NCBI GenBank assembly: GCA_048940925.1
Contig: JBHLOC010000054.1
Location: 1-32,110, forward strand
Direction: 5' to 3'
Source: Promethearchaeota archaeon
GTDB taxonomy: Archaea > Asgardarchaeota > Lokiarchaeia > Sigyniarchaeales > SOKP01
DNA length: 32,110 nt
Part shown: piece by piece, positions 1 to 30,456 of the stretch
How positions within the stretch are numbered: position 1 is the stretch's first letter
How the letters are laid out: every line of letters starts with the position of its first letter
Position numbers and translations under genes: made by a program
The notes under the pieces: generated by a model
Database searches by the model: none
Told to the model about the DNA's origin: nothing
The model's input: only the letters and a program-made list of their open reading frames with translations

Positions 1-430
1 CGGTGCCAGAGGGTACATTTGAATTTCCTGAGCAGGAACCCATAGATGATCAAGAACAAGAACCAGAATTTGAGGATGTACCAGAGTGGGTTCCCCCAGA
101 AGATTTAGCGGGAGACAATGATCCTGAAATTCCTGTTCCAGAAGGTATTTTTGAGCCTGCTGAATCAGAACAAGAACCAGAATTTGAAGATATTCCAGAA
201 TGGGTACCCTCTGAAAAATTAGCGGGTGATTATATACCTGAGATTCAAGTGCCTGAAGAAACGTTTGAACCTGTAAAACCAGAATCAGAACCAATTGATG
301 ATCAAGAACTTGATTTAGATTCTGAATATGTACCAGATTGGGTTCCTCCAGAAGAGTTAGCGGGAGATAATATCCCAGAAATTTTAGTTCCAGAAGATAC
401 TTTTGAATTTCTTCAACCTGAGTTAGAATC
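1..430 (+). repeat. Intragenic imperfect tandem repeats (38-46 aa units, P[ED]WVPxExLAGDxxPEIxVPExxFE)
   Basis: Three recognisable copies plus a partial copy at the window edge; 'ttagcggg' recurs at ~106, ~220 and ~357. Confidence 0.85.
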
Positions 431-3257
431 CATATATGACGAAGTACAGGAAGATTTAAATTCAACAGAAGAAAAATGTGAGCAGGAAAATCATAATGAT
501 ATTGTTCAAAAATATCCGCATGAACATTCTTCTGATGTTCTTCAAAAACAAAATGACATTTTAATTATGGGAAATAGTTTCTATTCCAGTCATAATGACA
601 CTGACTCTTTTAGAGATTTTAAACCAAAAGAAGAGGGAAAAGATCAACAAAAACCAGAAAGAAAATTGCCAATAAAGACAAGAAAAACTCAAACTAATAA
701 AAAAAAATCAGGATCTGATAGAAATACTATAAATAAGCAAAAATCAGGTCAAAGAACCATTCTTGTTTTAAAACCAGAAATAAAGGAGAAGAAAACAGAG
801 AATAAAAATAAAGCGAAGCCTATAAAAAATGAAAAAGACGAAAAAGAGACTCAAAAAGAAAATGAGGAGGAGGTCCCGCAAGAACTTAGAGAAAGATATA
901 AACGTGAGACAGGAAAGAGAGCTATATATGCAGGTAAAAATACTAAAGGTTTTGATGAATGGCAAAAAATACAAAAGAAATCAGAAACAGTAAAAGAAAA
1001 TAAGGAAAAAAGAGAGTTAAAAGAAGATTGGGAGCTATTATTAGAAAAATGGATAAATGAGGCGAATGAAAAAGTAATTTCTAAAGAGATTAAGAAAAAG
1101 CTTTTAGAAAAAATTAGAAAATATAGGCGCCTAAAGGATTTAAGTAGAAGGCTCTTCTACTTGTTAAGAAAAGAAAATCTAACAGAAAAAGAGACTGATG
1201 AAATTGAAACTTTGATTCAGCAAATTAAGAATATGGAGCCGATTCGAGAAGAGATTTTTAATAACTTAAGAGCTTTTAAAAAGTTCTATGAAGAAAATAT
1301 AAAATGGTTTGAGTATCGAATTCAAGCCGAGAGAGAGAAATTTACAAAATTCCTTGCTGAAAAATTAGAAAAACTTAAAGAAAGTAATGAGCTAAGGGAT
1401 AATTCTTCTAATTGGAAAGATCTATTGAAAAGGGCTTTAGGCTCATCAAAAGAAATTGACAGTTATGAAAAAATCTTAGTTGTCAATATCTTGAAAAAAT
1501 CTGATTTAACTGATAAAGATATCAAAAATTTATCGCTAATATTAAGCAAACTTGAGACGAAGGTATTGGTTGACATTTTTGGAGAAACCTTCTATTTACA
1601 AACACAAAATTATGTGAGATGGGGTTGGGACTTCTATAGAAATATAAAAATGGAGATCTTACGAGATTATTTTTCTTTAATAAAGGAAAAATCAAAATTA
1701 TTAGAAATTAATAAATCCGAGAAAATAATCAAGAATAAATTAGATTTGTTAAGAAGTATTGTTGAAATAATATCTAATAATGAAGATTTATCAAACTTAA
1801 ATGATAAAGATATTAAATTTCTATTTTTATTATCAGAATTAATAGGTATAATTCTTGGGGATGGAAATATCCGAAGATATAGTTTTAGAATAGATTTGAA
1901 TAAGGAAGATGAAATAGATTATGTAAATTATGTTAGTAATTTGATTTATCAAGTTTTAGGTAAATTTCCTCAAAAAAGGGACAGGAGAGGTATAGATGAA
2001 GAACATGAAGGGAAGGGCATTAGACTTATAATTAATGGTAAAGGAATAATAGACTTATTGACTAGAATTGGACTTAAAAGAGGGGATAAAATTAAGAATG
2101 CTGCAAAGGCTCCTGAATGGATTTTAGAAAATAAAATTTTAATCCCATATATATTAAAAGGCTTATTTGATACTGATGGAAATATTGATATACATAAAAA
2201 ATGGAGGGCACTCATTTTAAGATTTGTTAGTGGTTCTCAAATCCTTATAAAGAATTTCAAGTTAATGTGTGAAATATTAGATATAAAAACTTCGAATATT
2301 AGACCAATTAAAATAAAAAGTAAAAAATACAATAAGGTGTATGACGCTTGGGTTGTTTCAATAGGCTCTAAAGAAGCTATTAAAAAATTTATTGAAATTG
2401 TCGAACCTAAGAAATTCTTGTATCGCAAAAAGTTAATAGCAATGTTATTATTTATCCTTAAAAATTCTGAAAGAAAAGAGATAATAGATGAGGAGAAAAA
2501 AAAGGCATTCCCGAAGAAAAAAAAAATAAATCAATTTACTAAAGAATATATGGATTTCCTTCAGAAAATGTTTAAAAAATACAATTGGAACATTAATAAT
2601 GATCTTATAGAAAATCTTATAAAAGAAGCCTTGACTCTTAGAACACACAATTATAATATTTTAATAGGAGAAAAGTTAAAGGAGCTTTTTGAAATGCTTG
2701 GAACTGTTAAATTGGTTGTCGATTTTTTTATGAATAAAGGAGAAAAGTTATCTTTTCAGACTGTTAAAAACCATATAAAAAAATTATTGAGTAGAGAAAA
2801 ATATATAAACATATTCAGTAGTTCTAAATATAATCCGTTAGAAATTTTAGGAGATTCTTTCTATGATAAATGGGAAATAAACAACTCTAGAATTATTATC
2901 GATAAAGATAAAAGAAAAATCAATCAATTTAACTCAATATTAAGAATTAAAATAGCTCTTGAAATTTTTAATTTTCTAAAAAAAAATATTGATCCTTATT
3001 CAGTTAAAAATAATTTGATTATAAACCATTTAAAAGAATTAATTGAAAAATCTCCTTATTTTGGAAGATTAAATTATCTTTTGAATGATATTGATTATGC
3101 CCCAATAGTAAAAAATTATTTTATACGTCTAATAATTGTTGTAAAAGAAATAATAAAAAGTCCCAATGAGACAGCTTTCAGCATAGGTAAGAAATCAAAT
3201 CTGAAGGCAGATACAGTTCAAGATATAATGAATAAATTAAAAAAAAAGGTTGATTAA
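1..3257 (+). CDS. Large multidomain protein (5' partial): acidic Pro/Glu repeats, K/E-rich helical region, double-motif LAGLIDADG (DOD-type) endonuclease domain, possible C-terminal HTH
   Basis: Frame is open from the window edge. LAGLIDADG motifs LSELIGIILGDGNI (~1830-1870) and ILKGLFDTDGNI (~2150-2186), with the typical intervening 'GLKRGDK...PEWI' and the downstream 'LCEILDIKTS...W.V.I.SKEAIKKFIEIVEP'. No Hint splicing blocks recognised. Confidence 0.85.
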   Translation, partial: VPEGTFEFPEQEPIDDQEQEPEFEDVPEWVPPEDLAGDNDPEIPVPEGIFEPAESEQEPEFEDIPEWVPSEKLAGDYIPEIQVPEETFEPVKPESEPIDDQELDLDSEYVPDWVPPEELAGDNIPEILVPEDTFEFLQPELESIYDEVQEDLNSTEEKCEQENHNDIVQKYPHEHSSDVLQKQNDILIMGNSFYSSHNDTDSFRDFKPKEEGKDQQKPERKLPIKTRKTQTNKKKSGSDRNTINKQKSGQRTILVLKPEIKEKKTENKNKAKPIKNEKDEKETQKENEEEVPQELRERYKRETGKRAIYAGKNTKGFDEWQKIQKKSETVKENKEKRELKEDWELLLEKWINEANEKVISKEIKKKLLEKIRKYRRLKDLSRRLFYLLRKENLTEKETDEIETLIQQIKNMEPIREEIFNNLRAFKKFYEENIKWFEYRIQAEREKFTKFLAEKLEKLKESNELRDNSSNWKDLLKRALGSSKEIDSYEKILVVNILKKSDLTDKDIKNLSLILSKLETKVLVDIFGETFYLQTQNYVRWGWDFYRNIKMEILRDYFSLIKEKSKLLEINKSEKIIKNKLDLLRSIVEIISNNEDLSNLNDKDIKFLFLLSELIGIILGDGNIRRYSFRIDLNKEDEIDYVNYVSNLIYQVLGKFPQKRDRRGIDEEHEGKGIRLIINGKGIIDLLTRIGLKRGDKIKNAAKAPEWILENKILIPYILKGLFDTDGNIDIHKKWRALILRFVSGSQILIKNFKLMCEILDIKTSNIRPIKIKSKKYNKVYDAWVVSIGSKEAIKKFIEIVEPKKFLYRKKLIAMLLFILKNSERKEIIDEEKKKAFPKKKKINQFTKEYMDFLQKMFKKYNWNINNDLIENLIKEALTLRTHNYNILIGEKLKELFEMLGTVKLVVDFFMNKGEKLSFQTVKNHIKKLLSREKYINIFSSSKYNPLEILGDSFYDKWEINNSRIIIDKDKRKINQFNSILRIKIALEIFNFLKKNIDPYSVKNNLIINHLKELIEKSPYFGRLNYLLNDIDYAPIVKNYFIRLIIVVKEIIKSPNETAFSIGKKSNLKADTVQDIMNKLKKKVD

Positions 3258-3931
3258 ATTTTTAAAGGCTCACCGCCTTGTTCTAAAATTTCTACTTTAA
3301 TATTTGGATCTTTTTTCTCTAGTAACTCTTTGAATTTGCTGAGATCCTTACCCCAATTTTGCCTTTATATATGACCTGTATATAAATTATGCATTGGAAT
3401 TGCAATCTTAGGTTTTACATCAATAATAGAATCAGTAGATTCGTCAAAATCCATTGTATAGGTTCCTCCGCACGGCATCATTGCGACTGTAATGTGTTTG
3501 CTTGCTAAATCTTTCATTTCTGGAATTCTTTCAGTGTCACCAGCATGATATACACTTTTATCTCCAGATCTTACAATAATCCCTGCCCATTCATTACTTT
3601 TAGGGTGATTTGGTTTTTTTATATTATATGCGGGGATTAGTTCAATTGAAAGATCCTTATAATCGAAAATTTCGCCAAATTTTAAGGGTTTTCCGTTAAA
3701 TTTGCTTAAATCACTTGAGATACTTGCTGGACCTATAACCACAGTATCGTCTTTAAATATTTTTTTGATACTTCCTGCATCAAAATGATCACCATGAGAG
3801 TGTGTTGAAACCACAACATCAGCTTTCTCTTCTCCTTTTTTAATTTGGTAAGGATCTAAATAAATCACATTCCCACCCTCTGTCTTTATCTTGAATGCGG
3901 CATGGCCTAACCATGTAATTTCCATAGTCAT
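3254..3931 (-). CDS. MBL-fold metallo-hydrolase (UPF0173/Lactamase_B_3-like); exons 3931-3388 and 3357-3254, 215 aa if spliced
   Basis: Motifs WLGHAAF, DPY, THSHGDHFD, YHAGDT, GGTYTM, PMH. The reading frame continues past the TAA at 3365-3367 as NWGKDLSKFKELLEKKDPNIKVEILEQGGEPLKI*, which resembles the usual MBL C-terminal helix-strand. Its stop (3254-3256) overlaps the stop of the convergent gene. Confidence 0.88.
3358..3387 (-). other. Putative 30-nt bulge-helix-bulge intron in a protein-coding gene
   Basis: mRNA reads AUUCCAA-UGCA-UAA-UUUAUAUA-CAGGUCA-UAUAUAAA-GGCA-AAA-UUGGGGU: 7-bp outer helix, two 3-nt bulges, 4-position central helix (3 Watson-Crick pairs + A.G) and an 8-bp inner helix. 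Cutting after the 2nd nt of each bulge restores the frame and removes the stop. Confidence 0.82.
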
Positions 3932-3940
3932 TTTTTTATT

Positions 3941-3945
3941 TCACC
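3941..3945 (-). promoter_or_regulatory. Shine-Dalgarno (GGTGA) of the MBL gene
   Basis: GGTGA ends 9 nt before the ATG at 3931. Confidence 0.6.
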
Positions 3946-4107
3946 ATCTAATATTATTTCTTTAAACAATTTTTATTGTATCATTATGATTTAATATAAG
4001 ACCTAATATAACTTTATCACTTTCAGAATAGTTTTGAAACACTTTAATGATGACTGTTGAAAATTAAAATAAATTGATTAAAAAAAATCAGACTTTAATA
4101 AGTAAAA

Positions 4108-4603: not shown

Positions 4604-5371
4604 ATGAATATGATGTTAAAAGGTGTTTTTTTTGATCTCTATGGAACATTATTAATACCTAAAAATAGTAAAAAAGCATGGAACAACTGGTTTTATACCT
4701 TTTATAAAATTATGAGAAGCTATGGATTAAAATCATCAAAAGCAGATTTTTCAAATGAATGTAATGGCTTTTTCTCGAGAGCAGAACCTCAGGAAAACAT
4801 TGAGGGATTAACGATTTATGAAAATCAGATAAGAGATTTTGCTAGAGATTTAAACTTAAAACTCGAAAAATTTAAGATTAAAAAAATTGCGAATGAATGT
4901 GTCAATGCGTGGCATAAATATATAAAAATTGATCCAGAAACAGTGCCATTATTAGAATCTTTGAATAATAAGAAATCTTTAGCCCTTATAACTAATTTTG
5001 ATCATCCGCCGTATATTTATTCAGTTTTAACTAAATATAAGCTTTCCAATTATTTTGAATTTATAGCCATTTCAGGAGAGATTGGTATTAAAAAACCTGA
5101 TCCATATATTTTTCACATTACCCTTAAAGAGACTGGATTGAAGCCTGATGAAGTAATATTTATAGGGGATAGTAAAGAAGATATCGAAGGAGCTAACTAT
5201 GCTAATATTAAACCGATTTTAATTCAGCGCCAAAGCTCTAAAAGGTTATTGTCTGCTAATGATTATGCTTCAAAAAGAATGATTAAAAATGAAAATATAC
5301 AGAATTATGATAACAAACCGTGGAAAATCATTTCGAATTTAAGGGATTTATATAAAATAATTAATTTTTAA
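4604..5371 (+). CDS. HAD-superfamily hydrolase (subfamily IA)
   Basis: FFDLYGTL motif I, ITN motif II, KPDP motif III, IGDSKEDIEGA motif IV. Confidence 0.92.
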   Translation: MNMMLKGVFFDLYGTLLIPKNSKKAWNNWFYTFYKIMRSYGLKSSKADFSNECNGFFSRAEPQENIEGLTIYENQIRDFARDLNLKLEKFKIKKIANECVNAWHKYIKIDPETVPLLESLNNKKSLALITNFDHPPYIYSVLTKYKLSNYFEFIAISGEIGIKKPDPYIFHITLKETGLKPDEVIFIGDSKEDIEGANYANIKPILIQRQSSKRLLSANDYASKRMIKNENIQNYDNKPWKIISNLRDLYKIINF

Positions 5372-5537: not shown

Positions 5538-7304
5538 ATGGCTGAATGGCAAGTAAATGAAGAAAAGGCTTGGTTTAAAAAATGGTGGCCTGAAAAAACT
5601 CCTAAAAATTATGATTTCGAAAAAATTTCTTTGGGAGAAATATTTGAGAGACAACGAAAGAAATATCCTAATGAGCCTATGATGTGGTTTTTAGAGTCAT
5701 GGATGACTTATGATGAAGCTGGTAGTGCTATAGATTCATTAGCGACAGCTTTTCACAAATTAGGGATTAAAAAAGGTGATGTAGTAGCATTTTTAATGCC
5801 AAATTGTTTTCAGTATGTAATTAGTTTCTATGCCTCTGTAAAACTAGGTGCAATAGCGACTGGTATAAATCCAACTTATAAACCTTTAGAAGTATTACAT
5901 CACTTAAAATTGACTAATGCCAAAGTGTTAATTACTTTAGATGCTTTATACGGCGAACTAGCTCGACCTATTATCAATAAAACAAATGTTGAAATGGTTA
6001 TTTATACTAATATTGCTGATTTAGCATCCGGATTGCCAAGCTGGAAAAAAAGTCTAGGAAAAATGGTTGGAAAAATTCCAAAAGGGAAAATTGATTTTCC
6101 AGGAGCAATAAAATTCTTAGACCTTCTCGATACTGAATCTGATTTACCAAAAGTAGATTTTGATCCCATTAAACATACAGCAACATATTTGATGACCGGT
6201 GGAACCACAGGAGTCCCTAAAGCTACTGTTTTAACCCATTTCAATTTAGTAACAAATGCAATTCAATGTGTTTTATGGGTGGGTGGAGAAGATCCCGGAG
6301 TTGGTGATATTGGAGCAATTCCGTTATTTCATTCATTCGCAATGACCGCTGTTATGAATGTCGGAATAGCTTTGGGAGGATGGATGATGCTATTTCCAAG
6401 ACCTCCTCCAATAGAAGATTTCTTAAAAGAAATTTCTCATATTCCTGCCCCAAAGGGTCTTTTTTATGCTGGTGCTGAAATTTTATTTAAAAGAATAGCT
6501 GATTTTCCAAATCTAAATAAATTTCCGAATTTAATGGGAAGATTAAGACTTTGTATTTCAGGTGCTGGGCCTTTACATGCGCCAGTACAGCAATCATTTC
6601 AAAAGAATACAGGTGGACGAATAGTAGAGGGATATGGTCTTTCAGAAGCAAGTCCAGTTGTAAGTGGGGGCAATTTATTTGGCGAAAGTCCTGTTGGAGT
6701 AATTGGTATGCCATTTCCAGGTACTGATTGGGCAATTTTTGATGCGGATAACTTTGAGAAAGGACCAATAGCAGATGGGCTACCCAGTTCTAATTATGGA
6801 GAAGAACATACTGGGGAATTATGTGTTTGCGGTCCGCAAGTCATGCAGGAATATCTAAATCAACCAGAAGAAACAGCAGAAACGCTTAAAAAATGGGATG
6901 GACGAACATGGCTTTTAACTGGGGATATTGGTTTTATGAATGAAGATGGAACTGTTACTCTTAGAGACAGAAAGAAACAGTTAATTAAAGTAGCAGGGCA
7001 TTCAGTATTTCCTGCTGAAGTTGAAACTATGCTTATGAGTAATGAGGCTGTTTCTGAAGCCGCAGTAGCAGGATTACCGGATCCAGCTGGAAAAGTTGGA
7101 GAAATAACCAAGGCATGGGTTGCATTAAAACCACAATATAAAGGTAAAATTACTGAAAAAGAATTGATTGCATGGACTGAAAAAAACATGACAAAATGGA
7201 AATGTCCAGCAATGATAGAATTCGTTGATGAAGTCCCTAAAAGTGCTATGGGAAAGGTTGAAAGGCGTGTTTTACAAGAAGCAGATCCATTATTTAATAA
7301 GTAA
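5538..7304 (+). CDS. Long-chain fatty acid-CoA ligase (AMP-binding, FadD-like)
   Basis: MTGGTTGVPKA P-loop, PLFHSFA, EGYGLSEASP, WLLTGDIG, DRKKQLIK, PKSAMGKV. Confidence 0.95.
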   Translation: MAEWQVNEEKAWFKKWWPEKTPKNYDFEKISLGEIFERQRKKYPNEPMMWFLESWMTYDEAGSAIDSLATAFHKLGIKKGDVVAFLMPNCFQYVISFYASVKLGAIATGINPTYKPLEVLHHLKLTNAKVLITLDALYGELARPIINKTNVEMVIYTNIADLASGLPSWKKSLGKMVGKIPKGKIDFPGAIKFLDLLDTESDLPKVDFDPIKHTATYLMTGGTTGVPKATVLTHFNLVTNAIQCVLWVGGEDPGVGDIGAIPLFHSFAMTAVMNVGIALGGWMMLFPRPPPIEDFLKEISHIPAPKGLFYAGAEILFKRIADFPNLNKFPNLMGRLRLCISGAGPLHAPVQQSFQKNTGGRIVEGYGLSEASPVVSGGNLFGESPVGVIGMPFPGTDWAIFDADNFEKGPIADGLPSSNYGEEHTGELCVCGPQVMQEYLNQPEETAETLKKWDGRTWLLTGDIGFMNEDGTVTLRDRKKQLIKVAGHSVFPAEVETMLMSNEAVSEAAVAGLPDPAGKVGEITKAWVALKPQYKGKITEKELIAWTEKNMTKWKCPAMIEFVDEVPKSAMGKVERRVLQEADPLFNK

Positions 7305-21361: not shown

Positions 21362-22384
21362 GTGAATATTTTGGATTTTCCAGAATTAATTACAATTGGA
21401 AGTAATACTTTAGATATTATAATAGAAATTGATGATATCTTACGGTTTGAATTATTCGATAAAGACATCATAAAAAAGTATACTGCTATTGAATACTCTC
21501 GCAAATTAAATGTTAAGAATGTTAGGTTTGTTCCAGGAGGGTCAGGAGCTAATATAGCTGCTAATAGTTCTATGTTGGGGTTAAATTGTGCATATGTGGG
21601 AGTTATGGGGAAAGATTTCTCTGCAGATATTTGTTTAACTGACTTAAAAAAGAGAGGAGTGGATTTATCTCAAGTAATTCAGACTAATGATGACACTACG
21701 GCACTGTCAATCATTTTGCGGACTCCTTGGGGAAAAGATAGGAGTATTTTAGCATATAAAGGAGCTAATAATCTATTAAAACCTTCAGATCTGAAAGATG
21801 AATTATTTAATGAAATTAAAGCTTTCGCATGGACATCTTTAACGAATGATAATGCATGTAAAACTATAGAGAAAGCAATAACACTCACAAAAGATAAGGG
21901 AGGAATGGTATTCGCTGCTCCTAGCATGTCAATAATAAAAAATGCCCCGAATTGGGCAAAAACTCTAATTTCCAATTCTGATGTAGTATCAATGAATTTA
22001 GAAGAAGCTCAAGAGTTTACAGGGGAAAAGAAAAAAACTCTTATGATTAATAACTTCTTAGATATGGGTATAAAACTGATTTCTATCACTGATGGTCCTC
22101 ACGGTTCAATTATTTCAGATGGTAAAAAAATTATAAATAGTGGAGTTTATAGCGCAGGAGATGTTGAGGATACTACAGGTGCTGGTGATGCTTTCTTAAC
22201 TGGTATCTTAATCTCTCGATTGAATAATTTATCTCTTGAAATGACTTCAAAAATGGCTACTGCGATGTCCTTCTTAGAATGTAAAGAAATTGGAGTTCGT
22301 GAGGGTTTACCAACAAGTTTTTCACAGTTAGAGGATTTCGTGTCTAATAATACAATAAAGCAAGTTATTTCAGAAATAGTATAA
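21362..22384 (+). CDS. PfkB/ribokinase-family carbohydrate kinase
   Basis: PGGSGANIA, VGVMGKD, NLEEA, ITDGPHGS, DTTGAGDAF. Confidence 0.93.
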   Translation: MNILDFPELITIGSNTLDIIIEIDDILRFELFDKDIIKKYTAIEYSRKLNVKNVRFVPGGSGANIAANSSMLGLNCAYVGVMGKDFSADICLTDLKKRGVDLSQVIQTNDDTTALSIILRTPWGKDRSILAYKGANNLLKPSDLKDELFNEIKAFAWTSLTNDNACKTIEKAITLTKDKGGMVFAAPSMSIIKNAPNWAKTLISNSDVVSMNLEEAQEFTGEKKKTLMINNFLDMGIKLISITDGPHGSIISDGKKIINSGVYSAGDVEDTTGAGDAFLTGILISRLNNLSLEMTSKMATAMSFLECKEIGVREGLPTSFSQLEDFVSNNTIKQVISEIV

Positions 22385-22503
22385 TGTATCCTTAATAACG
22401 CGAAACTTTTTTTCTCTTTTTTTAATACTTGAACAACTAATTCTAATTGAGATTTTAAATAATTGTTCAAATCATCTTTAATTATTTTTATGACACTTAA
22501 TAA

Positions 22504-22600
22504 TGACCTATGGTCAGTTGATGACTTAAAGTGCAAACATTTAAATATGAGGGCATATTTTTATATATTAAACCCTTGGTCACCTAATGACCCCGAGTTG
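22504..22600. promoter_or_regulatory. Candidate TetR operators TGACC-N3-GGTCA (one perfect, three degenerate)
   Basis: TGACCtatGGTCA 22504-22516, TGACTtaaAGTGC 22522-22534, AAACCcttGGTCA 22570-22582, TGACCccgAGTTG 22588-22600. Confidence 0.6.
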
Positions 22601-22609
22601 ATGTTAAAT

Positions 22610-23296
22610 ATGAATGACACTAATCAAGAAAAAACACTGGCAATGAGTAGATTAGAACGTGAACGTGAAGAAATGAAGGAGAAACGGAGACATGATATAT
22701 TAAGTGCCGCAGAAAAATTATTTCTTTCACAAGGATTTGACGAAGCCACAATGCAAGATATTGCTGATGAAGCTGAATATAGTAAAGGGACCTTATACAA
22801 CTATTATAAGTCAAAAGACGAATTATATATCGCAATTGGTAGTAAAGCTTATAGGTTGATAATTGAGTATACTAAAGAATTTACAGAAAAAGAGAAGGCT
22901 GGTATAAAGCAGATTATGGCGATAGGATATGCATACTACGAATTTACTAAGAAATACCCTGATTATGCTTCGATATTCCATGATATTGCTGTTAAATTCC
23001 CTGATATAACAGTAAAACCTAAAAGTAAACTTTCTTTGATTGAGAAAGAATATCTTTCATTAAGTAATTCATATAGGGATATTTTTATAAAAATTTTATC
23101 CGATGCTATGAAGGATAAAGCAATTCGAGCTGATAAGAATCCAAATATGATTGGTTATGTACTTTCCACTGTAACAAGAGGAATAGTTGAGGATTTAAGC
23201 CAGAGTGAAAATGTAGTTAAGAGATTAGGATTAAACTCAGATGAAATAATTGATTTCATATTTGAGATACTTGGAGATGGATTAAAACCAAGGTAA
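22610..23296 (+). CDS. TetR/AcrR family regulator (start approximate; the ORF-track start at 22463 is probably too early)
   Basis: ILSAAEKLFLSQGFDEATMQDIADEAEYSKGTLYNYYKSKDELY. Confidence 0.92.
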   Translation: MNDTNQEKTLAMSRLEREREEMKEKRRHDILSAAEKLFLSQGFDEATMQDIADEAEYSKGTLYNYYKSKDELYIAIGSKAYRLIIEYTKEFTEKEKAGIKQIMAIGYAYYEFTKKYPDYASIFHDIAVKFPDITVKPKSKLSLIEKEYLSLSNSYRDIFIKILSDAMKDKAIRADKNPNMIGYVLSTVTRGIVEDLSQSENVVKRLGLNSDEIIDFIFEILGDGLKPR

Positions 23297-23322
23297 AAGT
23301 AAAATTTAGGAGGTATAAAAAA

Positions 23323-23820
23323 ATGTTAAAAGTTTTAGTAGTATTTTACTCATTGACAGGAAATACTAAATTAATTGCAGAAGCAATACAAAAGACTGCT
23401 AATGCTGATATTCTCGAAATAAAACCAGTTAAAGAACTTAAAGATGAAGGATCAATGAAATATTTTTGGGGGGGATTTCAAGCAATAATGAAAAAGAATC
23501 CTAAATTGAAACCATTCGATATTAATCCCCTTGAATACGACATAATATTCATAGGATCTCCTGTATGGGCATGGAGATACACTCCTCCAATTCATTCATT
23601 CATGAAAAAATATGATCTTTCAGGGAAAAATTTAGCTCTTTGGATGTGTTCTGGAGGAGATGGCGAAAAAGCAATGGGTAGATTTAAAGATGCTTTAAAA
23701 AGTACTAATATTATTGGTGATATCAGCTTTCAGGAACCTTTACAAAAAGGATCGGAAGAAGCAGCAGAAAACGCGATAGCTTGGGCAAAATTAATTATTG
23801 AAAATGTTAAAAATAACTAA
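23323..23820 (+). CDS. Flavodoxin
   Basis: YSLTGNTKLIA FMN loop, YDIIFIGSPVW; AGGAGGT RBS upstream. Confidence 0.92.
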   Translation: MLKVLVVFYSLTGNTKLIAEAIQKTANADILEIKPVKELKDEGSMKYFWGGFQAIMKKNPKLKPFDINPLEYDIIFIGSPVWAWRYTPPIHSFMKKYDLSGKNLALWMCSGGDGEKAMGRFKDALKSTNIIGDISFQEPLQKGSEEAAENAIAWAKLIIENVKNN

Positions 23821-23844
23821 AAATAAAACTAAGAGAGATATAAA

Positions 23845-24627
23845 ATGGTACAAAATCTTAAATTATTCAGATTAAGAAAAGTAATAATGTTTTTATGGGT
23901 AATTGCTTTGCCCATTACTTTTAATTGGATGTCACCAGTTCTTATTATTATGGCTGGTTTTGAAGGATATATTAATTTGAGTTTTATAATATTTGGAATT
24001 TGGTTTGTATCTTCCCTATTTTTTGGCAGGGCATTTTGTTCCTATGCGTGTCAATGGGGGGCTGCTCAAGAAGTAATGGGTGATGTTGTTCCAAAACCAT
24101 TAGATCCTGAAAAGAAGGCAAACCGTAGAAAAATCAAATATATAGTATTTGTAATTTGGATAATCTTTATTGTATTAGGACCAATATTAGCTATGGGTTA
24201 TGTTAATGGTTTTAATCCATATTATCCAAGTCCGGTTGATGATCCATCAGGTTTAATTTCTTTAAGTGAAGTTGTTATAGGGCAATTTATTTTCTACTTT
24301 GGAATCATTGCGTCAGTTGTAATTTTATTTACATTAGTTGGAGGTAAGAGATCCTTTTGTAATTATGCTTGTCCTATGGGAGTTTTAGGAATTATCGGAA
24401 CTAAAATAAAAAATGCACTTAAGTATCCTTCTTTACATTTAGAAGCTGAATCTGAGAAATGTACAAATTGTAAACAATGTTCAAAAGCTTGTGAAATGGG
24501 ACTTGATGTTAATCAACTTGTTCAATCAGGGGATATGTACAATGCGGATTGTATCTTATGTGGTAGATGTATTGCCACTTGTAAGCAAGATATTATAAGG
24601 TATGCATGGAAATGGGACAAATATTAA
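23845..24627 (+). CDS. Membrane 4Fe-4S protein (NapH/MauN-like)
   Basis: GRAFCSYACQWG and KRSFCNYACPMG motifs, plus CxxCxxCxxxC twice. Confidence 0.9.
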   Translation: MVQNLKLFRLRKVIMFLWVIALPITFNWMSPVLIIMAGFEGYINLSFIIFGIWFVSSLFFGRAFCSYACQWGAAQEVMGDVVPKPLDPEKKANRRKIKYIVFVIWIIFIVLGPILAMGYVNGFNPYYPSPVDDPSGLISLSEVVIGQFIFYFGIIASVVILFTLVGGKRSFCNYACPMGVLGIIGTKIKNALKYPSLHLEAESEKCTNCKQCSKACEMGLDVNQLVQSGDMYNADCILCGRCIATCKQDIIRYAWKWDKY

Positions 24628-24764: not shown

Positions 24765-24897
24765 GCGCTCTTAGTATAGTGGTCAGATTCTGTTGGATTT
24801 ACCGCTAAATGATTAATATGCCAGGTTGCCATAAACTAAGACTTCTTTATTGCTTTGCAAAAACCTGGCGACCCGGGTTCAATTCCCGGAGGGCGCA
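24765..24897 (+). tRNA. tRNA-Gly(GCC) with two introns (D-arm ~24787-24816; canonical 37/38 at 24832-24862); CCA not encoded
   Basis: Acceptor GCGCUCU/AGGGCGC + A73, anticodon stem CCAGG/CCUGG, GCC at 24828-24830, T arm CCGGG-UUCAAUU-CCCGG. Intron 2 forms a BHB (UUGC/GCAA helix; bulges CAU and AAA). Confidence 0.93.
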
Positions 24898-24937
24898 TAT
24901 TCTTCCTATCGATTAATTTAAAAAACTTTGAAAAAAA

Positions 24938-26110
24938 TCATAAAAATATGTTAATTGGAGGGATCTTAGTAATTAGAGAGTGAGATTCTGAATCATAAAT
25001 ATATTTCTTTATATTTTTTAACTTTATATTTTTAGCTTCATAGAATTGTTTAATTATTTCTTTCTGGAAAGATTTGGTATTATGATAATCAAATCCATTA
25101 ACTTTTTTGAGCCGAATAATAACAGTATCATGATTTTCAGCGATTTTTTTTTTTATTTCATCTCGGTTTCGTTGTATTAAAAATTCCTCATAATTTTTAT
25201 GAAACGCATTTGGATATTTATCATGTTGTTCACCATCATATTCAAATGCAATTTTAAAAATTTTTCCATTAATTACAACATGACCATTAAATCCATCAAA
25301 TTTTAATCTCCCTCCCTCATTCGCTAAGATATTATAAGCTTTAATTAATGGAGTTTCTGGAAATCTACATTCAAAAATTTTTTCCATAAACATACGCATA
25401 ATACTTTCAGTTTTGGATTCTAGACAAATAGGACACCATCTACCTTGATATAACAAATTATCAACCCTAATTCTCCAAGGATGACTATTTTTGCACTCAA
25501 TCTCAACATATTTGAACTTTTGATTTCCTTCCTTAATATTAAAGTGGTTTTCTTTAGTTAAAAGCTTCGCACCTCTGTTCTCAATGAAGGTTTTAAGACG
25601 ATCAATTGTAATTGATTTATATGTTGCTTGTTTTAAACTCCAAATTTCTTTATATATTTCGAGAGCTCTTCTTTTCCCATAAATATGACTAAGAGATTTT
25701 ATTATCCATCTAGTAATTGTTCGTTTTGACACTCCTATTTTTTTCTCATAACCATTTATACTGTCAAAATTGTTAATTCTTTTAGGATAGTATATAAGTT
25801 GAGATTCAAACATTTCTAAAAATTTGAATTTTTTATTTTGAATTAATTCATCAGAAGTTGGCCATAAAATTTTGCGAATTCTTTTTGCTTCTTTTTCTCC
25901 ATATCTTGAATCCATATAATTATCAAACCATTTTCTGAAAAATCCTCTTGTGATCTTAAAATATTTAGGATATTGTCGTAAAGACATTAATTTTTCTTTT
26001 GCTATTTTTTTAGGATTATCTCCAATTAGTTCATCAAAAAAAGATTTCAATTCTTTATGTTTTTCTGACACCTTATATAAAATCTCTTTTTTACCACATA
26101 AACTATACAA
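24938..26110 (-). CDS. Free-standing putative endonuclease: tandem HTH-like repeats, Zn ribbon, PD-(D/E)XK/Vsr-like nuclease domain (start uncertain)
   Basis: ECKNSHPW...QGRWCPIC; ESKTE; LKFDGF...IAFEYDGEQH...QRNRDEIKKKIA....IIRL. Confidence 0.82.
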   Translation of the reverse strand: MYSLCGKKEILYKVSEKHKELKSFFDELIGDNPKKIAKEKLMSLRQYPKYFKITRGFFRKWFDNYMDSRYGEKEAKRIRKILWPTSDELIQNKKFKFLEMFESQLIYYPKRINNFDSINGYEKKIGVSKRTITRWIIKSLSHIYGKRRALEIYKEIWSLKQATYKSITIDRLKTFIENRGAKLLTKENHFNIKEGNQKFKYVEIECKNSHPWRIRVDNLLYQGRWCPICLESKTESIMRMFMEKIFECRFPETPLIKAYNILANEGGRLKFDGFNGHVVINGKIFKIAFEYDGEQHDKYPNAFHKNYEEFLIQRNRDEIKKKIAENHDTVIIRLKKVNGFDYHNTKSFQKEIIKQFYEAKNIKLKNIKKYIYDSESHSLITKIPPINIFL

Positions 26111-26397
26111 CCCTTATAATTTACTGAATTTGCGTACTCAAAGGATTCAATTTTTTAAAATTTTGATTAAGAACTCTACAATTAACCCCTATTGAGAGCT
26201 TCAAGTATGAGTTGTATTAATAAAATTTTTATTGATACAAGATATTTGATCTCTATCTTGAAGGATATTTCATAAGAAGTTGAAACTAATCGAATACTCT
26301 ATTTCAATAGAGGGGTATTATAGATTTCAAAATTTAAATTTAACCAATTTTAGTTAAAATCCTTTGATTTTTAATAGAAAGAAGCGAATAATTGAAT

Positions 26398-27213
26398 ATG
26401 TTTCAAAAAGAGTTAGGAATAATCGGTCTCGGAAAAATAGGATCTACCTTATTAAAAGTATTTATTGAATCAAAAACAATAGAAAGGGAAAAAATAATTG
26501 TTTATGATATTGATCAAAATATACTTCATCAGAGAATTGAAGAATTTAAAATTAAATCAGCTAAAGATAATAAACAATTAGTTAAAGATACTAAATATAT
26601 TTTAATAGCTGTGTTACCTCAAGTAATAGATAACGTCCTAAATGAGATTGGCCCATTGATAACTGAAGAGCAGATAATAATTTCAATTGCAGCAGGAATT
26701 TCTATAACACATATCAGCAAATATGTAGATAAAAAAGTAGGTATCTTAAGAATAATGACCAACACTCCTGCGTTAGTAAGAGCAGCAGCCTCTGCTATAT
26801 CATCAAATGAAAATATTAAACAATCTGATTTAGATTTTGTTAAAAATTTATTTAATTCTTTAGGTCTTGTTGTAGAATTAGAAGAAAAACATCTAGACGC
26901 AGTCACTGGCTTATCAGGGAGCGGTCCAGCATATCTTTTTATTATTATGGAATCGTTGGCAGATGGAGGTGTAAAAATGGGACTCCCAAGAGAAATAGCT
27001 TTAAAGCTTGCGGCACAAATGGTACTAGGTTCAGCAAAATTAGTATTAGAAACTGGTAAACATCCTGGTGAATTGAAAGATATGGTTGCAACTCCTGGAG
27101 GTACAACTATTACCGCTATACATGAAATTGAATCAGCTAAATTAAGAGCAACACTTATAAGAGCTGTAGAAGCAGCAACATTAAAATCTAGATCTATGAA
27201 TAAAAAAAATTAA
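26398..27213 (+). CDS. proC: Pyrroline-5-carboxylate reductase
   Basis: IIGLGKIG, ISIAAGI, RIMTNTP, DAVTGLSGSGPAY, HPGELKDMVATPGGTTI. Confidence 0.96.
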   Translation: MFQKELGIIGLGKIGSTLLKVFIESKTIEREKIIVYDIDQNILHQRIEEFKIKSAKDNKQLVKDTKYILIAVLPQVIDNVLNEIGPLITEEQIIISIAAGISITHISKYVDKKVGILRIMTNTPALVRAAASAISSNENIKQSDLDFVKNLFNSLGLVVELEEKHLDAVTGLSGSGPAYLFIIMESLADGGVKMGLPREIALKLAAQMVLGSAKLVLETGKHPGELKDMVATPGGTTITAIHEIESAKLRATLIRAVEAATLKSRSMNKKN

Positions 27214-30382: not shown

Positions 30383-30456
30383 TGGGCCCGGCGCGATTTG
30401 AACGCACGACCTTCCGCACGTCAAGCGGACGTCATACCAGGCTAGACCACGGGCCC
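30383..30456 (-). tRNA. tRNA-Val(GAC), intron-less
   Basis: GGGCCCG/CGGGCCC acceptor + A73, anticodon arm UCCGC-UUGACGU-GCGGA, T arm GUGCG-UUCAAAU-CGCGC. Confidence 0.96.

Follow-up and report, generated by a model that had tools for sequence, protein, structure and literature searches.

The stretch of DNA analysed here (the window) is an entire 32-kb contig (C54; 32,110 nt) of a Loki-type Asgard archaeal assembly of 4.8 Mb and 29.6% G+C, labelled G000, and it carries a tRNA-Gly(GCC) gene with two introns, upon whose 3' end an open reading frame (ORF) of 390 amino acids converges. This ORF is probably a free-standing endonuclease of the homing type, docked at the 3' end of tRNA-Gly(GCC). It is a member of a family specific to Asgard archaea, whose lineages are each bound to a single, highly conserved target gene. 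Our observations on this family comprise its protein architecture, a rule of neighbourhood, patchy occurrence, decayed copies, displaced fragments of target genes and islands of similarity.

The genus-level comparison took in 31 genomes, with 22 syntenic PfkB-tRNA-Gly loci (G000 plus 21 relatives). G-numbers denote genomes of the genus, L-numbers nuclease-family or comparison loci and C-numbers contigs; the loci were drawn from draft assemblies and short contigs, and the relatives compared are phylogenetically non-independent.

The window locus and its predicted nuclease

The following features of the window are referred to throughout:

24765-24897, plus strand: tRNA-Gly(GCC) gene, 133 nt, the sole GCC copy found in G000
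24787-24816, plus strand: intron 1, 30 nt, at D-arm position 22/23, with a relaxed bulge-helix-bulge (BHB) motif
24832-24862, plus strand: intron 2, 31 nt, at the canonical anticodon-loop position 37/38
24898-24937, no strand: spacer from the tRNA 3' end to the nuclease stop, 40 bp, AT-rich
24938-26110, minus strand: free-standing predicted nuclease gene, 390 amino acids from a TTG start (gene callers give 377 amino acids from an internal start)
25556-26110, minus strand: N-terminal helical region of ~185 amino acids with repeated helix-turn-helix (HTH)-like units, a presumed DNA-binding module
25415-25513, minus strand: treble-clef zinc ribbon (C204, H210, C226, C229)
25025-25417, minus strand: C-terminal Vsr-like (EDxHD-type) PD-(D/E)XK nuclease domain, assigned by modelled fold
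26111-26391, no strand: upstream spacer from the nuclease start to proC, with no displaced tRNA-Gly fragment

ARAGORN misreads the window tRNA-Gly(GCC) gene, and together with Rfam at the gathering score it overlooked or misinterpreted the majority of the tRNA genes that matter here; their negatives were discarded. Because standard finders fail on interrupted tRNA genes, we used a custom heuristic scanner for the acceptor and T arms, which tolerates introns, the T loop included, and ran it over all fetched loci. Genes in which the acceptor stem or the T stem is not intact escape it, and its tRNA census is therefore a lower bound. For G000 the census gave 45 tRNA genes, of which 34 (~76%) bear introns and 10 have a 29-34-nt intron within the T loop; tRNA-Gly genes other than GCC were TCC and CCC. 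At whole-genome scale, Rfam and ARAGORN miss or truncate many G000 tRNA genes, that of the window among them.

At the window locus itself, Rfam RF00005 covers 24765-24897 (plus strand) from end to end (43.1 bits, model positions 1-71, with inserts of ~32 and ~33 nt), and the scanner recognised its T arm as intact and its acceptor strands as the pair GCGCTCT/AGGGCGC. Excising both introns yields a 72-nt tRNA-Gly(GCC) whose exons equal those of the intron-less and one-intron orthologues of the genus, with each intron boundary sliding by 1-3 nt owing to repeated letters; as no further GCC copy turned up in the genome, the RNA must lose both inserts. The minimum-energy fold of intron 2 is a helix, a 3-nt bulge and a helix, with a central helix of 3 bp (z -2.6). 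The relaxed motif of intron 1, read by eye, has the central helix GGUC/GAUU with two G-U pairs, and its local fold was no better than that of shuffled sequences. None of the 21 syntenic tRNA-Gly(GCC) genes in the genus has intron 1, and its excision restores the D arm that they show.

Counted from the nuclease stop, the tRNA 3' end is 40 bp away, the anticodon-loop intron ~77 bp and the D-arm intron ~122 bp, and no terminator-like site was found in the 24898-24937 spacer. Coordinates, distances and kind of protein all agree with the original prediction, made from the letters of the window, of a double-intron tRNA-Gly gene converging on a Zn-ribbon/PD-(D/E)XK gene. The same prediction had both intron-containing genes of the window facing a convergent nuclease gene and tRNA-Val free of one, and this too was borne out: a LAGLIDADG ORF (3-3257) converges on a metallo-beta-lactamase (MBL)-fold gene, and Pfam detected no nuclease-type neighbour of the intron-less tRNA-Val(GAC) gene (30383-30456).

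We then examined the protein encoded by the ORF. In the AlphaFold2 (AF2) model its N-terminal region is all-helical (predicted local distance difference test, pLDDT, 75-93); residues 84-165 gave weak VIA-align matches to homeodomain, winged-helix and TrpR folds, and Pfam HTH_23 matched the region at a marginal level. Three of the zinc-ribbon residues, H210, C226 and C229, do not vary within the family, and Pfam DUF4379, a zinc ribbon, was matched in 3 of 16 family members (best E-value 7.9e-7). Invariant in the nuclease domain are D272, E290, Y291, G293, H296, D317 and K320, with a core block EYDGxQH(D). The model has a pLDDT of 82.9 over the whole protein and 91.4 over the C-terminal 193 amino acids. 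Structural comparison by VIA-align against 48,161 chains gave as best match the catalytic domain of I-Bth0305I (3r3p_B; Z 9.5, root-mean-square deviation 2.8, 97 of 98 residues aligned), followed by the RAP module of FASTKD4 (Z 9.2), Vsr (1cw0; Z 9.1) and NGO0050 (3hrl; Z 8.5). These top four matches are all Vsr-like nucleases, and the Vsr-like fold was recovered with both the full and the domain models. By its modelled fold, then, the window ORF is a putative Vsr-like nuclease of the homing-endonuclease type, with predicted cleavage activity.

Taken by itself, the nuclease domain falls into a huge superfamily, with 13,164 representatives at E <= 0.001. The full architecture was found in ~30 full-length relatives, all from Asgard assemblies or (sediment) metagenomes. 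In five loci (L014, L019, L168, L174 and L176) the nuclease frame is open far upstream, over 698-1030 codons, and three database relatives (P0024, P0029 and P0051) are 1000-1375 amino acids long; some family members may, judging by these frames, be fused to large N-terminal regions.

Targets and mobility of the nuclease family

In nearly every readable context the full-length relatives adjoin an intron-bearing tRNA gene or an rps11 gene with a mini-intron. Their targets comprise 11 tRNA species and rps11, and every identified target carries at least one tRNA-type (BHB-type) intron:

Gly-GCC, convergent: the window (40 bp) and L158 (12 bp)
Lys-UUU, convergent at 1-90 bp: L001, L015, L016, L159, L167
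Ser-GCU, convergent at 1-90 bp: L011 (the G010 copy), L160
Asp-GUC, convergent at 1-90 bp: L012, L155, L169
Asp-GUC, convergent with a LAGLIDADG ORF between (~1 kb): L162
Thr-GGU, convergent at 8 bp: L153
151-nt tRNA with anticodon UAU, convergent with one small ORF between: L014, L165, L168
Val-CAC, tandem: L002, L018, L171, L013, L166, L173
His-GUG, tandem: L017, L164
Ile-GAU, tandem: L019
Ser-CGA, tandem: L175
Leu-GAG, divergent: L009, L010
rps11: L151, the nuclease and then rps11 with a 29-nt insert

Convergent, tandem and divergent layouts thus all occur; convergence is common and no rule, and it cannot be kept as the general trait that it had been taken for. With 45 tRNA genes in 4.8 Mb, a random gene end falls within 300 bp of a tRNA gene in ~0.7% of cases, so the association between nuclease and tRNA genes is not a product of chance. 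In a maximum-likelihood tree the nucleases group by the gene next to them, in clades with 95-100% support. The window protein is an unplaced orphan in this tree, and L158, docked at the same site, is 40% identical to it.

The Asp-GUC locus L162, on metagenome contig Ga0315542_1000453, holds two nuclease genes at one tRNA gene. Between the Vsr-like gene and tRNA-Asp(GUC) lies an ORF of 290 amino acids (3210-4082; Pfam LAGLIDADG_3) with 21 bp between its end and the 3' end of the tRNA gene, and from this arrangement it follows that two unrelated nuclease families use one dock, as the original prediction of different nuclease families had it. The Thr-docked nuclease of L153 is flanked by two interrupted tRNA genes, as ~320 bp upstream of it (1007-1182, minus strand) there is a multi-intron tRNA-Met-like gene, a T-loop intron included. 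In the tRNA(UAU) and rps11 lineages an ORF of ~200-230 amino acids follows the nuclease (L006:7278-7976, L014, L165, L168 and L174), with a weak match to Pfam Cyclophil_like2 and a common motif ESGEIKPGD; it may be a second gene of the cassette.

The family is patchily distributed. Full-length copies were present in 2 of the 31 genomes of the genus, at Gly-GCC in G000 and at Ser-GCU in G010, and genomes hold one or two copies each. In all 21 relatives tRNA-Gly(GCC) directly follows a PfkB-like kinase gene (the orthologue of window 21362-22384), and its downstream neighbours are ordinary (genes for an MBL-fold hydrolase, enoyl-CoA hydratase, Fic and flavodoxin); among the 22 syntenic loci, the nuclease was found in G000 only. 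No nuclease remnant was detected within 1.5 kb of the nuclease-free tRNA-Gly, -Ser, -Asp and rps11 loci (E <= 1e-3). In G000, genes for a TetR, a flavodoxin and a Fer4 protein (22463-24627) are inserted between PfkB and the tRNA gene, and proC (26392-27213), which adjoins the nuclease there, stands in a conserved, different neighbourhood in ten relatives; the inserted genes and the relocated proC mark the tRNA-Gly locus as a rearrangement point. An attempt to anchor synteny on proC failed, as proC lies elsewhere in the relatives. The tRNA-Gly(GCC) alleles of the 21 relatives are of four kinds:

intron-less: 7 of 21
with a 37/38 intron homologous to that of the window (~80% identical in 8-9 relatives): 9 of 21
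with a different intron of ~31 nt, one position away: 4 of 21
with two other introns: 1 of 21 (G045)

The second docked allele, L158, is a metagenome contig from a relative (PfkB 75% identical) whose tRNA-Gly has a single private intron at ~30/31. No nuclease was found beside an intron-less tRNA-Gly, the pattern that would have spoken against the original prediction, as all 7 intron-less alleles are nuclease-free and the docked L158 allele bears an intron.

Signs of mobility came from the family at large. The nuclease genes of L012 and L162, and likewise those of L013 and L166, are 85-92% identical over the gene while their flanks are unalignable; these similarity islands are evidence from family members, the window copy having no close relative. 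Frameshifted copies were found in L164, L165 and L175. The L155 nuclease is flanked by a complete tRNA-Asp gene and, on its far side, by a displaced tRNA-Asp 3' half, which runs from the anticodon onward and holds a T-loop intron and an encoded CCA end, and in L010 the tRNA-Leu 3' half is duplicated. A further rearranged piece was seen at L002 (5604-5760, minus strand, and 5830-5931), where an inverted second Val-CAC-like piece lies beside a complete tRNA-Val(CAC) gene with a T-loop intron; in this piece there are two different introns and an encoded CCA end, and a 5' acceptor strand was not found.

The rps11 lineage extends these observations to a protein-coding gene. In L151 a frame-breaking, BHB-like insert of 29 nt (1596-1624) is flanked by Pfam S11 positions 2-47 and 51-110, and the same junction is uninterrupted in 26 of 28 relatives. 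G022 (L282, G022:C56) has an unrelated rps11 insert of 30 nt, 4 nt upstream of the L151 site, and foreign DNA replaces S4 upstream of its rps11; this insert and the missing S4 suggest that the rps11 junction may be a hot spot. In L006 a 14-residue N-terminal fragment of rps11 (5172-5213) follows S4, and a cassette holding the nuclease comes after it. Directly upstream of the L006 nuclease is a G+C-rich, RNA-like stretch of ~200 bp (5800-6000), for which no Rfam family and no protein match were found. In the G000 assembly, no rps11 match was found anywhere.

Several observations weigh against a docked homing endonuclease. By sequence, no Vsr/EDxHD match was obtained in profile searches of PDB sequences, Pfam, NCBIfam and PHROGs, and Foldseek against PDB gave scattered PD-(D/E)XK matches with E-values of at least 0.05. 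For five family loci a target could not be recognised. L157, L161, L170 and L174 come from metagenomes or assemblies, in part on contigs that are short or cut; the remaining one is a nuclease paralogue of G000 at C43, 44 kb from any tRNA gene. Around the window nuclease no flanking repeats were found, and local alignment in the 26111-26391 spacer stayed below shuffled controls, yielding no displaced tRNA fragment. Finally, L015 and L016, from two species, are uniformly ~88% identical over the nuclease and its flanks; this uniform identity indicates vertical inheritance with retention, and as the gene was kept intact, it may have been domesticated there.

The introns and rival explanations

Taking the ORF as a homing-type endonuclease, we propose that the enzyme would cut nuclease-free alleles within or next to the target gene, and that repair from the nuclease-bearing allele would copy the nuclease gene along with the adjacent part of the target. 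The copied segment would bring along that allele's introns, or its intron-less stretches, and the two introns of tRNA-Gly(GCC) would be either passengers or interrupters of the recognition site that protect the host allele. In this scheme the cleavage of DNA, the place where the enzyme cuts and whatever part the introns play are inferences.

Two explanations of the introns survive best. According to the first, collaborative homing, the nuclease recognises the uninterrupted target at or near an intron insertion site, a BHB mini-intron splits this site and shields the host allele, and nuclease and intron spread together by repair of cut intron-less alleles; we put this forward tentatively, as a possibility somewhat short of likely. 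Extended to LAGLIDADG as well as Vsr-like enzymes, it would have the free-standing endonucleases of Asgard archaea form homing units together with BHB mini-introns: the enzyme would cut the uninterrupted tRNA or protein gene where the intron is later to stand, the intron would confer immunity, and repair would spread nuclease, neighbouring gene segment and intron jointly. We hold this wider version to be possible and slightly doubtful. On a role of the introns in immunity as such, we incline a little towards the negative. According to the second explanation, a homing-type element targets conserved genes or their flanks, and the introns are bystanders, common for other reasons; this, too, is a serious possibility that we stop short of calling probable.

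For joint spread speaks, first of all, that every identified neighbour gene has at least one BHB-type intron and that no intron-less neighbour occurs among the 11 tRNA species, which sits poorly with bystander introns. However, with 34 of the 45 tRNA genes of G000 interrupted, intron-bearing neighbours are expected anyway, and at this base rate of 76% eleven interrupted neighbours have p ~0.05 (0.76^11). In favour, too, are the private introns, which both docked Gly-GCC alleles carry (2 of 2; 22/23 in the window and 30/31 in L158) versus 1 of 21 nuclease-free alleles (hypergeometric 3/253 = 0.012, post hoc), again contrary to a bystander role. In tRNA-Asp, a D-loop intron is present in 4 of 4 docked genes versus ~5 of 29 nuclease-free ones, a comparison that is not phylogenetically independent. 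The rps11 intron, rare as it is, is present at the docked copy (1 of 1 docked versus 1 of 28 undocked), which bystander introns would not lead one to expect, and the hot-spot-like G022 insert lies only 4 nt away. Phage precedents, too, exist for free-standing endonucleases beside ORF-less introns (PMC6083498, PMC2790892). All the statistics that favour the intron link are nevertheless post hoc.

The following evidence argues against the link and for bystander introns, as it shows introns without nucleases and intron loss beside a nuclease. The introns of the docked Ser-GCU gene of G010 occur, singly or together, in six nuclease-free genomes, and the D-loop intron of docked tRNA-Asp occurs in ~5 nuclease-free genomes, in both cases without a nuclease or its remnant within 1.5 kb. 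The T-loop intron, which is proximal to the nuclease and present in most nuclease-free tRNA-Asp genes, is gone from the full tRNA-Asp genes of L012 and L155, where it was lost rather than gained beside the nuclease; in these two the cassette swapped an intron-bearing gene end for an intron-less one. The closely related nucleases of L013 and L166 adjoin tRNA-Val genes with differing sets of introns. Moreover, a double-LAGLIDADG gene of 241 amino acids (G000:C73:64660-65620; L299:861-1819), a paralogue of window ORF 3-3257, stands 158 bp 3' of a tRNA-Arg(GCG) gene that lacks introns. Two HAD-hydrolase paralogues flank it, and on one of them it converges as well; it is a counter-example to nucleases standing only beside intron-bearing genes unless that HAD gene is its partner. 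A census of Asgard tRNA introns, which reports repeated gains and no mobile-element signal within 5 kb (bioRxiv 10.64898/2026.10.13.758758), likewise favours bystanders.

In the window itself, the 22/23 intron is private and the 37/38 intron has homologues in nuclease-free relatives; for this locus the data lean slightly towards a nuclease-intron link and are suggestive only. Of the module of intron and nuclease that the original prediction had proposed, the neighbourhood beyond chance and the homing-type nuclease stand, and the intron link is no more than suggestive. The further idea that such modules are a general route of tRNA intron spread does not hold, since the nuclease is too rare, being found in two of the genus genomes and at one tRNA gene in each. 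Taken together, the observations agree with a nuclease that transfers segments of its target gene from one genome to another and carries introns in or out with them.

A different origin would be a remnant of an integrase-type island at a tRNA 3' attachment site, with the nuclease as cargo, for instance a defence gene. The 3' ends of tRNA genes are classical integration sites, the duplicated tRNA 3' halves of L155 and L010 resemble att sites, and the stretch downstream of tRNA-Gly varies among relatives. We nonetheless consider this origin very unlikely: the window neighbours (TetR, flavodoxin, Fer4, ProC and GYD) include no integrase or island gene, and flanking repeats are absent; the unit between the tRNA-Asp copies of L155 is the nuclease gene alone (~1.4 kb); a one-to-one match of clade and target is unexpected of cargo; and rps11 is not an att-type target. 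Still less credible is an RNA-acting helper or processing factor for the neighbouring interrupted transcript, comparable to RAP-domain proteins or intron maturases, for although the second-best structural match is the Vsr-like RAP module of an RNA-binding protein, the D-arm intron has a relaxed BHB and the neighbours always bear introns, the HTH-like array, the zinc ribbon and the best structural match point to DNA, patchiness and broken copies are not what a required processing factor would show, and relatives splice similar introns without the nuclease.

Significance and comparison with known systems

We found no publication on such nuclease genes beside Asgard tRNA genes. The census cited above, of 2026, concluded that Asgard tRNA introns were gained many times and left their route of arrival open; it judged mobile elements by hallmark proteins only and did not consider stand-alone nucleases (bioRxiv 10.64898/2026.10.13.758758). 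New here are the second nuclease superfamily, the map of clades to targets over 12 genes and the evidence that tells against a link to the introns. Few known tRNA genes are as heavily interrupted as those of Asgard archaea, and a nuclease family whose lineages each dock at one intron-bearing tRNA gene or at rps11, and which reshuffles parts of these targets, makes the question of how introns arrive testable at the bench. Joint homing of nuclease and mini-intron, if true, would for the first time offer a concrete path at the level of DNA by which protein-spliced introns arrive and spread in the archaeal relatives of eukaryotes; should the link to the introns fail, an ordinary though undescribed family of homing endonucleases remains. 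In addition, the small group of Vsr-like homing endonucleases gains an archaeal, chromosomal branch of new architecture, the family explains stray tRNA fragments in these genomes, and a warning follows that standard tRNA finders miss these interrupted genes.

Among known systems, archaeal BHB introns are associated with homing endonucleases, as LAGLIDADG enzymes reside inside archaeal rRNA BHB introns (I-DmoI, I-PorI type). There the ORF lies inside a long intron, whereas here the introns are too small for one and the nuclease lies outside the host gene. The displaced target fragments recall the mobile endonuclease ORFs of fungal mitochondria (Allomyces atp6 type), which bring a replacement gene end: the L155 nuclease likewise stands between a complete target and its displaced 3' part, and L006 and L010 hold similar spare pieces. 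Unlike in that system, the targets are tRNA genes and the nuclease is of another family, and the window has no spare piece. SegB of phage T4, a GIY-YIG enzyme, promotes inheritance of the adjacent tRNA region. It resembles the family described here as a free-standing endonuclease gene among tRNA genes, and differs in being a phage GIY-YIG enzyme not accompanied by introns. This free-standing homing endonuclease in a phage tRNA gene cluster is mentioned in PMC13096335.

Closer to the arrangement in the window is collaborative or trans homing in phages, exemplified by F-CphI, a free-standing enzyme whose gene adjoins the psbA group I intron (PMC6083498), and by MobE with the defunct I-TevIII intron in T4 nrdB (PMC2790892). 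In these systems, as here, a stand-alone endonuclease lies next to a conserved gene with an ORF-less intron, occurs patchily, and flanking DNA is co-converted. The differences are that the introns here are BHB introns of 29-31 nt, spliced by the host splicing endonuclease, that the targets are chromosomal tRNA genes and rps11, and that co-mobility of nuclease and intron is partly contradicted.

The nearest relatives by fold are the EDxHD family, whose prototype is I-Bth0305I (PDB 3R3P) and whose members, free-standing genes included, combine an N-terminal DNA-binding region with a C-terminal Vsr-like domain (PMC3239194). Unlike them, the window family shows no detectable sequence similarity to that family, adds a treble-clef zinc ribbon (DUF4379) before the nuclease domain, and has a longer N-terminal array that is not NUMOD-like. 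Its hosts are Asgard chromosomes rather than phages or bacteria, its activity is predicted, and it neighbours protein-spliced BHB mini-introns instead of group I introns or inteins. Conserved acidic and His residues of the window family may correspond to D196, H213 and D222 of I-Bth0305I. What the two families have in common is a modular N-terminal part, presumed to bind DNA in the window family, and the C-terminal Vsr-like fold (Z 9.5).

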